Made by a program: the position numbers and the translations under genes. From the sequence record PP047755: DNA of 64,000 nucleotides; one strand, given 5' to 3'. The notes beneath the pieces were generated by a model, which was given only the letters and a program-made list of their open reading frames with translations, was not told where the DNA came from and did no database searches. The stretch's first letter is position 1. Every line of letters starts with the position of its first letter. Of this stretch, positions 2,965 through 51,955 are shown piece by piece. This stretch comes from Escherichia phage KEP1.

Positions 2965-3545
2965 TGTCAGAAGAGCATGAACACATTCAACCAGAAGTTA
3001 CATTAGTCAAGCATTTCGGGAATGTAGAAGGCTGTGTAGCACTTTTTCAGACCAACATCAACTCTCCAGTCAAACTGTGCAAATTGACGATAAACACCAA
3101 CAACATCAGCGTATGTGTGAATGAAGAAGTCCAATACTTCAAATTCAATGATAAAGAGGTTGATGCTGCACTATTAAAATACAGAGCAAATCTTGAAAAA
3201 GATATTGACCATAAAGAGGTGGTGAGTCTCTTTGCAGACCTTCATAAGCTTCTTGACAAGGTTGAAAAAAGAACATACTACATGAATAATGGTTCTATCA
3301 TTACTACCATGATTTCACCATGTATCTCCGAGCCAATCTTCACAGATGACGGTGCTTATTACATTGTAGCTTCAGCGGTATCTGATTGGTGGTTAAAGAA
3401 CAACGCCCTGAAAACAGTGATTGATGCTATCAGAGAGCACATCCCTACATTCAGCCCGTGGAAAGGGAAAGGTGATGAGTTTATCGCACTATTGAGTGAA
3501 GAGAGTAACAAGCGCAGTGCATTACTGCCTAAAAAATACTCTTGA
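2964..3545 (+). CDS. hypothetical protein (193 aa)
   Basis: ATGTCAG start overlaps upstream stop; no recognised motif. Confidence 0.6.
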   Translation: MSEEHEHIQPEVTLVKHFGNVEGCVALFQTNINSPVKLCKLTINTNNISVCVNEEVQYFKFNDKEVDAALLKYRANLEKDIDHKEVVSLFADLHKLLDKVEKRTYYMNNGSIITTMISPCISEPIFTDDGAYYIVASAVSDWWLKNNALKTVIDAIREHIPTFSPWKGKGDEFIALLSEESNKRSALLPKKYS

Positions 3546-3628
3546 CCGAATATACAACATTAACTATGATGGGAGCTATCGAGAGGTAGTTCCCTTTTTA
3601 GTTTCTTGAGAAGATACGTGGTGAAAGA

Positions 3629-3847
3629 ATGAAAAAACTAACTACAGTTGAAGATTACTACAAACTGTCCCTCTTAGAGCAGTATCGTAGGAGTCAGAAC
3701 ATCAGAAAATGCTACGGTAAACACGCTGAAGGTGACTTTTACCATTGCTATGATGCAGATTTAAAAGGTGTAACACCTAGAGGTAAAGTACTACAAAGAC
3801 TTGTTGACCTTGAGTGGAACAAAAGATTGAGAGGGATTGAAAAATGA
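3629..3847 (+). CDS. hypothetical protein (72 aa)
   Basis: ORF in operon context. Confidence 0.5.
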   Translation: MKKLTTVEDYYKLSLLEQYRRSQNIRKCYGKHAEGDFYHCYDADLKGVTPRGKVLQRLVDLEWNKRLRGIEK

Positions 3848-8136: not shown

Positions 8137-8374
8137 GTCTTTTTTCGTTGTATTTTGTCAGAATCTCACAAGATAATACATCGTACTTTGTAATAGCGTT
8201 GCCTTTGTCGAGGTCAAAGAATCCGAATGCTTTACCGTCTTTGAATCCGACAACTTCGTAAGATTCTTTAATGATTTCACCATTGAACAAATCACTTTCG
8301 ATACGGTGGAATAGCGCTACATCCTCTTTGTCGGTTGCAATTTGTAAAAGTGTGGTCAGTTCGACGTGTTCCAT
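8111..8374 (-). CDS. hypothetical protein (87 aa), cassette gene
   Basis: ORF preceded by conserved 5'UTR element. Confidence 0.65.
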   Translation of the reverse strand: MEHVELTTLLQIATDKEDVALFHRIESDLFNGEIIKESYEVVGFKDGKAFGFFDLDKGNAITKYDVLSCEILTKYNEKRLATYANMQ

Positions 8375-9613: not shown

Positions 9614-9847
9614 CTAGTCTTTTTCAATGATAATTTCATATTGACCATCAACACTATCAAAATAAATGCCGTCTTCATCTTCTGTCTTAAAGTAGCATTG
9701 TATGTCATCACTGGCGGGATAGTCTTGTCTTGCTATCTGACAAACTTGAATGGCATTTTCTTTACTTCCTGTGAACTCCTCAAGCCCTTTAAAATCGCAT
9801 GAATGGCCGTTACAAATGGAAAGGATGAGATAAATGGTTGTAAGCAT
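9614..9847 (-). CDS. hypothetical small protein with N-terminal hydrophobic/signal-like segment (77 aa)
   Basis: MLTTIYLILSICNGHSC N-terminus; lacks the conserved cassette 5'UTR. Confidence 0.55.
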   Translation of the reverse strand: MLTTIYLILSICNGHSCDFKGLEEFTGSKENAIQVCQIARQDYPASDDIQCYFKTEDEDGIYFDSVDGQYEIIIEKD

Positions 9848-50457: not shown

Positions 50458-50604
50458 ATGTTCAGTACAGTCATTCTGTTTATACTGGTTGTCTTTGTAT
50501 TGTCATACGTTGCAAGTAAGCTTTTGGACACATCTTTTGCAATGGGTGTCTTGTTTACAATCTTTTGTTTCGTGACACATATAGCTATCAGGACTTTTAT
50601 ATAA
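50458..50604 (+). CDS. small hydrophobic membrane peptide (48 aa), not in the ORF track
   Basis: ATG three nt after the ligase stop; MFSTVILFILVVFVLSYVAS...VLFTIFCFV. Confidence 0.4.
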   Translation: MFSTVILFILVVFVLSYVASKLLDTSFAMGVLFTIFCFVTHIAIRTFI

Positions 50605-50611
50605 AAAGCTG

Positions 50612-50639
50612 TTGACATAGAAAATTTGGTGAGTATACT
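50612..50639 (+). promoter_or_regulatory. near-consensus sigma70 promoter TTGACA-16-TATACT
   Basis: -35 at 50612-50617, -10 at 50634-50639. Confidence 0.6.
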
Positions 50640-50689
50640 GAGCAGCATAAACCAACAGGTACTCACCAGCATCACTTAAGAGTCTTTCT

Positions 50690-50940
50690 AAGAGGGTTTT
50701 TAAGTGATGTCCGGTCGGGTGAGGTAGGGTTAAGTATTGTCCGGTACGGTCGGGTAAAGTACGGTACGGTAAGGTAAAGTACGGTATGGTAAGGCAAGGC
50801 TAGGTCTGGTATGGGTAGTTAGTCTCAGCTACATTAAAATGAGACTTACCTTTTTAAAAGGTCTTTAAGAGGGTCTTTTAACAAGGCGGGGTGCGGCTCG
50901 GTCTGGTTGTGTGAGGTTCTGTTTGGCTAGGTAAGGTATG
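50690..50940. repeat. strand-biased G/T-rich degenerate tandem repeats (GGTAAGG / GTACGGT units)
   Basis: GTCCGGTACGGTCGGGTAAAGTACGGTACGGTAAGGTAAAGTACGGTATGGTAAGG...; no ORF. Confidence 0.65.
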
Positions 50941-51065
50941 GAAGGATGGCAGTAGCCTTATAAAAAATCTGCCAAATAAGCTATAAAATCTGTTGACAAG
51001 TCAGGTGTTATAGCTTATTTTTATACTCAATGTAATACAAAATTTAATATAACTTTGAGGTCATT

Positions 51066-51449
51066 ATGAAAAAGATTTTATTAGCTGCTGCAATGGTTAT
51101 GGCAATGAATTTACCAGTCAATGCAACAGAACTTCCAAATGTGGACTTATCAGGTGTTCCAGAAGACACTTGTCAGATTGTTAAAGGTGTTGCTCTAGCT
51201 AATGGCGAGCTACTTAAACCAATCTCTGAAGAGTCTTTAACAGAGATGACTGATAAGGTAACTGACTATCAGTATCGTGTTCTTGCAGAGTATTTCCTGC
51301 AATCTGCAAATATTAAAGAGAAGCACCCTGATGATATTGATGTACAGACTATGCTTAATCATCGTATCCAGTTTAAAGAGGATTTGATGCAAAAAGCCAT
51401 GTATGGTGTTGAGTATTTCTTAGAAAACAGAAGCTGCACAGGTATTTGA
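51066..51449 (+). CDS. secreted protein (127 aa)
   Basis: Signal peptide MKKILLAAAMVMAMNLPVNA; GAGG ribosome-binding site. Confidence 0.6.
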   Translation: MKKILLAAAMVMAMNLPVNATELPNVDLSGVPEDTCQIVKGVALANGELLKPISEESLTEMTDKVTDYQYRVLAEYFLQSANIKEKHPDDIDVQTMLNHRIQFKEDLMQKAMYGVEYFLENRSCTGI

Positions 51450-51450
51450 T

Positions 51451-51663
51451 ATGGCTCTTAAAAAGTTACATCCCAGAAGCGGTTATGGTAAGATAATTGA
51501 TGATACAGACGGCTTTACAGTCTTTACAGTTATCTGTCAAGATGATTCACAGATTGAAAAGATTCTTGACGATTATCTTAACGATGAACGTGAAAAGGTT
51601 AGGGCTACAAACATAGATTCATTGATTGACACTTCACGCAAACGGAAGAAGAAAGATGAATGA
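51451..51663 (+). CDS. hypothetical protein (70 aa)
   Basis: ORF. Confidence 0.55.
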   Translation: MALKKLHPRSGYGKIIDDTDGFTVFTVICQDDSQIEKILDDYLNDEREKVRATNIDSLIDTSRKRKKKDE

Positions 51664-51955
51664 GGTTTTTGACCCTTATGCTCCACAAGATGATTGGGAG
51701 GCTGACAGAGAGGCTGAAATGGAGAGTTATATTTGTCCAATGGATGTAGACGAAATGAGAGACTTCGTTGCACATCGTTTTAAGAGAGAGATTAAGTCCA
51801 GAGGTCTTTCTCAAGAGCAAGTTGCTAAAATTTGTGGTATCTCTCAGGCTCGTGTATCCAACATAATCCACCTCACTGGTAATGTCTCGCTTGAGTATAT
51901 GTTGGAAGTATGCGAAAAATTCGGTGTTAATTTTAATTTAAGGCTGGCAGATTAA
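51656..51955 (+). CDS. helix-turn-helix DNA-binding protein (XRE-like)
   Basis: LSQEQVAKICGISQARVSNI helix-turn-helix; start ATG 51656 overlaps upstream stop. Confidence 0.6.
   Translation: MNEVFDPYAPQDDWEADREAEMESYICPMDVDEMRDFVAHRFKREIKSRGLSQEQVAKICGISQARVSNIIHLTGNVSLEYMLEVCEKFGVNFNLRLAD

Follow-up and report, generated by a model that had tools for sequence, protein, structure and literature searches.

A probable type II VIPR guide-RNA array without its effector gene in a Felix O1-like phage

Organisation of the locus between the ligase gene and the DHFR/TS block

The DNA analysed here, a stretch of 64,000 nucleotides that we call the window, belongs to a Felix O1-like phage (Felixounavirus) and is ~95% identical to the nearest records of the phage collection. 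The locus of interest has the DNA ligase gene on one side and the DHFR/TS block on the other. Its features are listed below, the repeat modules being labelled by analogy with the vrRNAs of the VIPR system of phage SUSP1, with which they are compared in the next section.

50612..50639, plus strand: promoter P1, TTGACATAGAAAATTTGGTGAGTATACT, TTGACA-16-TATACT, matching 11 of 12 consensus positions
50670..50709, plus strand: header hairpin type A, CATCACTTAA-N20-TTAAGTGATG, a 10-nt perfect inverted repeat
50701..50815, plus strand: repeat tract of putative vrRNA-a, 23 NNGGY units in perfect 5-nt register
50810..50846, plus strand: 3' tail of vrRNA-a, predicted H-type pseudoknot, from covariation
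50849..50886, plus strand: header hairpin type B, CCTTTTTAAAAG-N14-CTTTTAACAAGG, from the inverted repeat, the fold and the relatives
50883..50942, plus strand: repeat tract of putative vrRNA-b, 12 NNGGY units
50937..50973, plus strand: 3' tail of vrRNA-b, predicted H-type pseudoknot, from covariation; the identical sequence ends the last SUSP1 vrRNA
50993-51021, plus strand: promoter P2, TTGACA-17-TATTTT, identical in SUSP1, at the 3' border of the VIPR locus
51066..51449, plus strand: first gene 3' of the locus, 127 aa, not part of VIPR, with a homologue after SUSP1 vrRNA4

The near-consensus promoter that an earlier note on this DNA had described is found at exactly the coordinates given for it, and the same 28-mer stands upstream of vrRNA1 in SUSP1 and is kept in relatives. 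It is followed, as had also been observed, by a stretch without open reading frames (50640-51065, 426 nt, no plus-strand ORF of at least 30 aa), in which the sole ORF is one of 41 aa on the minus strand (50672-50797). The -10 box and start region of P1 are enclosed by an 8-bp inverted repeat, GGTGAGTA at 50628-50635 and TACTCACC at 50660-50667, which is likewise kept in relatives. No strong intrinsic terminator for P1 transcripts was found before 51066, so read-through into that gene is likely. Judged from its sequence, P2 is the promoter that drives the downstream genes. A 19-nt inverted repeat (50974-50992 / 51002-51020), identical in SUSP1, holds P2 and brackets its -35 box; it is operator-like, possibly for the protein encoded at 51656-51955. 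The latter gene, noted earlier as XRE-like helix-turn-helix, does belong to this class (Pfam HTH_3, E 4.9e-10), and no Pfam family was found for the product of 51066-51449. On the other side of the locus, the small ORF at 50458-50604 between the ligase gene and P1 is a variable cassette, which encodes a 48-aa hydrophobic ORF in the window and in phages humlepung, ASO1A and fBSPA4, and is replaced at the same position by an unrelated Cys/Lys-rich ORF of ~60 aa in SUSP1, L003, L010 and L017.

The repeat region had been called strongly G+T-rich, and its G+T content over 50690-50940, 65%, is indeed the highest that any 251-nt stretch of the window reaches (mean over the 64 kb 0.50, sd 0.036), with a GC skew of up to +0.56. 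Its repetitiveness exceeds chance: a scan of the window with the three-unit pentamer pattern GGTANGGTANGGTA, allowing up to two mismatches, gave 20 matches against 2.6 expected, with 14 of the 20 inside 50713-50943, and Tandem Repeats Finder reported periods of 5, 15 and 20. The form of the repeat differs from that first proposed, however. The unit is not a 7-mer resembling GGTAAGG or GTACGGT but a pentamer, NNGGY, whose 5-nt register is perfect throughout, with zero phase slip, and what had been described as one array over 50690-50940 is two, of 23 and 12 units, between which lie the first pseudoknot and then the type B hairpin. In a hand count of the units that precede the tails, GGY is perfect in 16 of the 22 units of vrRNA-a and in 9 of the 11 of vrRNA-b.

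Each module consists of a header hairpin, an NNGGY pentamer tract and a tail, and a genome carries one to five of them. Header A is stable in both the MFE and the centroid folds, is kept in all relatives, and continues through its 3' arm in register into the repeat tract; the annotation of phage ASO1A labels it a terminator, and it may be a processing signal. Header B has the loop GTCTTTAAGAGGGT in common with header A, and the two header types seen in relatives likewise have a common loop, GTCTTnTAAGAGGGT. The region as a whole folds better than shuffled sequences (z = -3.8). The tract of vrRNA-a contains an internal duplication of 30 nt (50700-50729 / 50730-50759), which accounts for its length of 22-23 units, above the 9-16 reported for vrRNAs. 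It copies the header's 3' arm (TTAAGTGATGTCCGG / TTAAGTATTGTCCGG), and the same is found in L016 and L018, two relatives that carry the 195-aa ORF introduced below.

Both tails of the window fit an H-type pseudoknot. In vrRNA-a, stem S1 would pair 50815-50818 with 50829-50832 and S2 50821-50827 with 50840-50846, whereas in vrRNA-b S1 would pair 50942-50945 with 50956-50959 and S2 50948-50952 with 50969-50973. Over 16 distinct tails, 93% of the cells are paired, compared with 29-40% in controls slid along the sequence, and 9 of 11 pairs have changed on both sides. Four tail types are separated by such compensatory changes, with GTAG/CTAC, AAGG/CCTT and GTGG/CCAC as variants of the first stem and AGTCTCA/TGAGACT, AATCGGA/TTCGATT, GGCAG/CTGCC and GGTAG/CTACC as variants of the other.

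The 1.1-kb region matches 258 phage records, the majority being Escherichia, Salmonella and Shigella phages of the genus Felixounavirus. In 23 IMG/VR relatives and in the annotated records, a spacer of 264 to 2,123 nt separates the ligase gene from the downstream gene, and P1, the hairpin CATCACTTAA-N20-TTAAGTGATG, the segment TATGGAAGGATGGCAGTAGCC...CTGCC and P2 are nearly invariant in it. In the pentamer tract, GGT (or GGC) is kept at every fifth position, while the NN are fully different between phages whose flanks are ~95% identical. Absence or lack of conservation of the repeats in related phages had been named as evidence against their significance; they are present in 27 of 27 relatives, and over the 84 modules of these genomes GGY is conserved and NN hypervariable. 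Where the Felixounavirus spacer is longer, two ORFs (195 and 146 aa) stand between the modules; the 195-aa ORF is flanked in this way in 15 of the 27 relatives.

Relation to the VIPR system of SUSP1

The 195-aa ORF corresponds to PDB entry 36pp, 'SUSP1 Vipr protein' (E 1.5e-127); it matches no Pfam family and falls in PHROG 4652, function unknown. The VIPR system of SUSP1 consists of Vipr, vap1 and four vrRNAs (bioRxiv 10.64898/2026.04.26.720920, 10.64898/2026.04.26.720927; PDB 36pp). In these 2026 preprints VIPR is presented as a minimal form of RNA-guided DNA recognition, proposed to be older than CRISPR, and Vipr as a minimal RAMP protein, kin of the CRISPR proteins Cas5, Cas6 and Cas7 (bioRxiv 10.64898/2026.04.26.720920, 10.64898/2026.04.26.720927). 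The vrRNAs comprise 9-16 YNNGG repeats, with a pseudoknot as the 3' tail in the SUSP1 clade; each GGY is bound by one Vipr protomer, and NN pairs with double-stranded DNA, every third target base being skipped, which leads to transcriptional silencing, as shown for the SUSP1 system (bioRxiv 10.64898/2026.04.26.720920, 10.64898/2026.04.26.720927). The SUSP1 vrRNAs are expressed as ~100-nt RNAs that bind and co-purify with Vipr (bioRxiv 10.64898/2026.04.26.720920). For 18 of the 20 SUSP1-clade vrRNAs with identifiable targets, the target is a satellite with homologues of the phage tape-measure and baseplate-hub genes, and some satellites have been reported to carry vrRNAs of their own (bioRxiv 10.64898/2026.04.26.720920, 10.64898/2026.04.26.720927).

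Parsing SUSP1 into modules in the same way gave one vrRNA upstream and three downstream, in agreement with the small-RNA sequencing of bioRxiv 10.64898/2026.04.26.720920, the full order being ligase, vrRNA1, vipr, vap1, vrRNA2-4, the homologue of 51066-51449, the HTH gene, DHFR and TS. The window resembles this arrangement in genomic position (ligase, locus, 127-aa gene, HTH gene, DHFR, TS), in its identical P1 and P2, in the shared header hairpins, GGY/NN tracts and pseudoknot tails, and in guides that point toward the same satellite family under the rule of a 1-nt skip. It differs in having neither vipr nor vap1, in its two modules instead of four, and in the 22-23 units of one guide where 9-16 have been reported. 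Of the marks of a VIPR locus, the window thus has the pentamer tract, the pseudoknot tail, the target code and the SUSP1 locus with its promoter, and lacks the vipr gene beside the vrRNAs and the accessory gene vap1. With a probability of about 0.8, we read the repeats as the array of guide RNAs (vrRNAs) from a SUSP1-clade VIPR locus of type II that is without its effector. The window is not a complete VIPR system, since the effector gene is missing; the kind of system is already known, and its orphan state is the undescribed part.

Two of the options that the earlier note had offered for the repeats bear on this reading. A non-coding RNA would be right in kind, the modules appearing homologous to the vrRNAs of SUSP1. 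The suggestion of a protein-binding array would hold in so far as these are binding repeats, but their partner would be Vipr on RNA and not the adjacent helix-turn-helix protein on DNA.

The association between pentamer arrays and Vipr extends beyond this genus. When IMG/VR was scanned for runs of seven exact GGTNN units, at least 120 loci were found, where fewer than one is expected by chance. Among the matches listed, 50 are degenerate arrays (at least six different NN), which lie on contigs unrelated to Felixounavirus and are often organised as tandem modules of 10-20 units with short conserved linkers. A tblastn search with the 195-aa ORF revealed homologues beside degenerate arrays in more than 30 unrelated loci. 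With a Vipr profile built from 36 homologues, the fetched stretch contained a Vipr homologue in 34 of the 50 degenerate-array loci among the matches listed, on the G-rich strand in 33 of the 34 and at a median distance of 146 nt from the array, as against 2 of the 70 simple pentamer microsatellite loci among the matches listed. Long tandem vrRNA arrays with short linkers of their own, each adjoining a distant Vipr homologue, are found on the unrelated IMG/VR contigs L045 (2200-3410, at least 10 modules), L035 (minus strand, 3380-3845, 7 modules) and L123 (3228-4335, 7 modules), and are probably other VIPR types.

In the 64-kb window, tblastn gave no hit for vipr at E 1e-2 or better and none for vap1 (the 146-aa ORF2), and the Vipr profile HMM found nothing (best E 9.7), with the positive controls SUSP1 and L003 at ~1e-62. 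The window represents ~64 of roughly 87 kb, and for the remainder the absence of vipr rests on synteny with SUSP1, by which the other ~23 kb are taken up by the structural and tRNA region, and on the complete genome of one relative, Salmonella phage fBSPA4. In that 87,179-bp genome, whose locus has the architecture of the window (P1, header A, array, pseudoknot, header B, array, pseudoknot, P2), the Vipr profile found nothing.

The orphan state is frequent. The 27 loci divide into 12 orphan ones, with one or two modules each, and 15 vipr-positive ones, with three to five, and roughly half of the Felixounavirus genomes checked are without vipr. Phage humlepung, like fBSPA4, is a vipr-less relative, and JohannRWettstein (Bas63) may be another, since the length of its match points to two modules. 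In the phage collection, Vipr is found at an identity of at least 90% in 118 records, compared with the 227-258 that match the locus. Sorted by organism name, 77 Escherichia-phage and 17 Salmonella-phage records have vipr, versus 119 and 76 that match the locus. The nearest relatives of the window are Salmonella phages.

Guides and their satellite targets

The satellite was located through its baseplate-hub gene, and four copies (L148, L151, L152 and L153) were scanned with every guide at skips of 0-3. It occurs in 474 of 5,426 complete E. coli genomes; among representative bacterial genomes, one per species, its baseplate gene was found only in Citrobacter, E. albertii and Shigella, and not in Salmonella. 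The element is ~12 kb long, with genes for two serine recombinases, a tape-measure protein and a baseplate hub (the last two being homologues of phage genes). Copies lie in L148 (5700-17300), L151, L152, L153 and L154-L156, and there are several insertion sites (yciI/tonB, near dinB, near yecN). In the four satellites examined there was no vipr and no pentamer array, and a blastn search of the array against the 5,426 E. coli genomes gave nothing, which indicates that the satellites are without these headers and tails.

Over all guides, a 1-nt skip alone gives matches of 0.8-0.92, compared with 0.55-0.75 for the other skips, and this restriction reproduces the published rule. The guides of the window behave alike (0.88 at a 1-nt skip versus 0.62-0.71 for skips of 0, 2 and 3). 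For vrRNA-a, 30 of 32 NN bases match L148 at 9700-9747, in frame with the gene of WP_021522065.1 (185 aa), the skipped base falling at the wobble position of its codons. The full 22-unit guide matches at 35 of 44 bases, against a mean of 24.9 (sd 1.0, maximum 29) for shuffled guides. Its 5' units also match in satellite L153, so that the entire tract seems to be one long guide, and its target site is present in a Citrobacter genome as well. The match of vrRNA-b is with L151 at 8139-8170 on the minus strand (21 of 22) and with L152 (20 of 22), at a site that covers the ribosome-binding site and the first codons of WP_053881421.1 (96 aa); with the tail unit included it is 21 of 24, against a shuffle mean of 16.7 and a maximum of 19. 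Both guides beat 100 of 100 shuffled guides, with z-scores of 9.2 for vrRNA-a and 6.0 for vrRNA-b, and vrRNA-a also beats 500 shuffles.

No self-target at 80% or more was found in the window, the best self-match being 0.77. Perfect targets were not found either, the exact-pattern scans of IMG/VR and the JGI metagenomes with both guides being empty. Taking all guides together, a target in the four satellites was found for 6 of 20 guides of orphan loci and for 29 of 61 of vipr-positive loci, and GGY is perfect in 74% of the units of orphan arrays versus 78% in vipr-positive arrays (p = 0.26). The guides of the window still appear to read as working guides.

Origin of the orphan array and alternative explanations

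Module A of the window is nearest to the first module of the vipr-positive loci L016 and L018, and module B shares 94% identity with the last module in the vipr-positive loci L003 and L012. A block of ~70 nt, consisting of pseudoknot T1 and header B, occurs twice in L003, L012, L007 and L021, where its two copies flank array 2, vipr, vap1 and arrays 3-4. In the simplest account, homologous exchange between these repeats would delete array 2, vipr, vap1 and arrays 3 and 4, so that just the outermost two modules remained, as in the window, and exchange between two type A headers would yield the loci with a single module. Both modules, each with its header hairpin, GGY/NN tract and 3' pseudoknot, would be transcribed from P1; vrRNA-a would address the gene for the 185-aa protein, and vrRNA-b the start of the gene for the 96-aa protein, of the ~12-kb satellite. 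Without Vipr these RNAs would be unable to silence on their own, and the array is presumably inactive at present. As far as the sequences can tell, it is most likely a recently orphaned, still-transcribed remnant. There are no marks of sequence decay in orphan arrays, in which P1, headers and pseudoknots are intact; recent or repeated loss of the effector would fit these intact arrays and their targets, and continued use would fit equally well. The last module always survives such deletions, so that the persistence of an array is not itself evidence of function.

Continued use would mean that the array is kept because it works without vipr in cis. Its RNAs could be loaded with Vipr supplied in trans, by a co-infecting vipr-positive Felixounavirus or another resident VIPR element, or they could be a decoy, abundant P1-driven RNAs soaking up the Vipr of a rival in a manner comparable to orphan CRISPR arrays or RNA anti-CRISPRs. 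We consider this unlikely, though by no means negligible. Promoter, headers, GGY and pseudoknots are equally intact in orphan and vipr-positive loci, both window guides have near-perfect natural targets, and the target match of vrRNA-a spans more units than that of the shorter version in the vipr-positive L016. About half of the sequenced genomes have an orphan locus, and Salmonella-phage records in particular have 17 vipr for 76 loci; the guide sets differ among orphan loci; and satellites with their own vrRNAs are described in the preprints, those four examined here being without vipr. However, selection is not needed for retention if the last module is never removable by module recombination, P1 may be retained simply because it helps to drive the downstream genes, and the diversity of orphan guides can be explained by independent deletions or by recombination with vipr-positive phages. 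Supply in trans, moreover, requires co-infection.

On the lines of the earlier note, the region could instead be a long structured 5' leader, or another cis-regulatory RNA, of the putative secreted-protein gene at 51066, or a DNA array bound by the XRE-type helix-turn-helix protein. The likely read-through from P1, the better-than-shuffled fold and the presence of the HTH_3 gene 600 nt downstream are in line with such a role, but we regard it as very improbable. The downstream gene has a conserved promoter of its own, P2, and the RNAs would be guides acting in trans, so that the leader reading does not appear to hold. The number of modules varies from one to five, and a gene cassette of 1.2 kb can interrupt the supposed leader. 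For the DNA-binding version, hypervariable NN mean that there is no fixed operator in the array, and a 5-bp period would be unsuited to a helix-turn-helix dimer on duplex DNA. In SUSP1, the same sequences yield discrete RNAs of ~100 nt that are found with Vipr (bioRxiv 10.64898/2026.04.26.720920).

A structural or replication element without guide function (an R-loop origin, G-quadruplex, primase-site cluster or antisense, C-rich Rho-loading site) is scarcely credible: a G-rich non-template strand (GC skew +0.56) behind a strong promoter, GG runs every 5 nt and a location at the edge of the replication gene block would suit it, but it leaves unexplained the strict 5-nt register, the pyrimidine after GG, the covarying pseudoknot, the close linkage with Vipr genes across unrelated viruses and the NN matches to satellites at a 1-nt skip only.

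Several known classes of element were also considered and rejected. A binding site for a TRAP-like ring protein and a CsrA-type sponge are opposed by the Vipr association, the covarying pseudoknot and the 1-nt-skip targets, and the Vipr association, the pseudoknot and these targets likewise oppose two-tier G-quadruplexes, an R-loop origin, a primase-site cluster, Chi- or RecA-type hotspots and an antisense Rho-loading site. The conserved triplet is GGY and not the GAG or UAG of a TRAP-type attenuator, and the GGA motifs of a CsrB/RsmZ sponge and the 36-nt units of ToxI antitoxin repeats are lacking. The array is not a CRISPR array, as its only period is 5 nt, with multiples and module-level repeats, and there are no repeats of 25-40 nt with spacers of similar length. 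A search of 50600-51065 against Rfam 15 gave no match, even at E up to 10.

The orphaned vrRNA array has a parallel in orphan CRISPR arrays, in which a guide array, promoter and intact repeats also persist without effector genes and the guides match mobile elements. CRISPR arrays are composed of repeat-spacer units and are borne by cells, whereas the window has GGY/NN pentamers with gapped pairing in a lytic phage. We know of no adaptation machinery for VIPR. The TRAP-binding RNA of Bacillus has 11 GAG/UAG triplets (nine to eleven), spaced by 2-3 nt in single-stranded RNA. By analogy, it may be compared with the present tracts in its conserved triplet and 2-nt spacer, giving a 5-nt period with one subunit per repeat; it differs in the (G/U)AG triplet and the 11-mer ring, where VIPR would use GGY, a helical RAMP filament and spacer bases that carry the targeting. 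In T4-type phages, promoter/stem-loop cassettes (PeSLs) shuffle genes in hyperplastic regions; like the modules described here, they are repeated regulatory elements that flank optional genes and provide homology for the gain and loss of cassettes, but in the window the repeated modules are themselves the guide RNAs.

Because the pipeline by which VIPR was discovered began from the Vipr protein, arrays without Vipr would have escaped it. The window shows that such effector-less vrRNA arrays exist and are common, and that promoter, GGY scaffold, pseudoknot and satellite-matching guides are kept in them. They offer a natural test bed for the frequency of effector loss, the sharing of guides between co-infecting phages and the limit of vrRNA length, which, with 22-23 units and a 66-bp target, could far exceed 9-16 units. 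If the orphan arrays were a maintained strategy, about half of the Felix O1-like phages would express working guides without encoding Vipr, which would imply use of Vipr in trans during co-infection or an RNA decoy against the VIPR of a rival. If they are only deletion scars, the window is an ordinary instance of a known system.

The alleles of the last module also differ in a particular way. Between vrRNA-b (50883-50942) and the vipr-positive allele in L003 (2318-2382) there are five differences, all in GGY and none in NN; they exchange G and T at the first G, or T and C at Y, and each allele has two imperfect units, in different places. As all five lie in GGY, the first G of this triplet may be less constrained than the guide bases.
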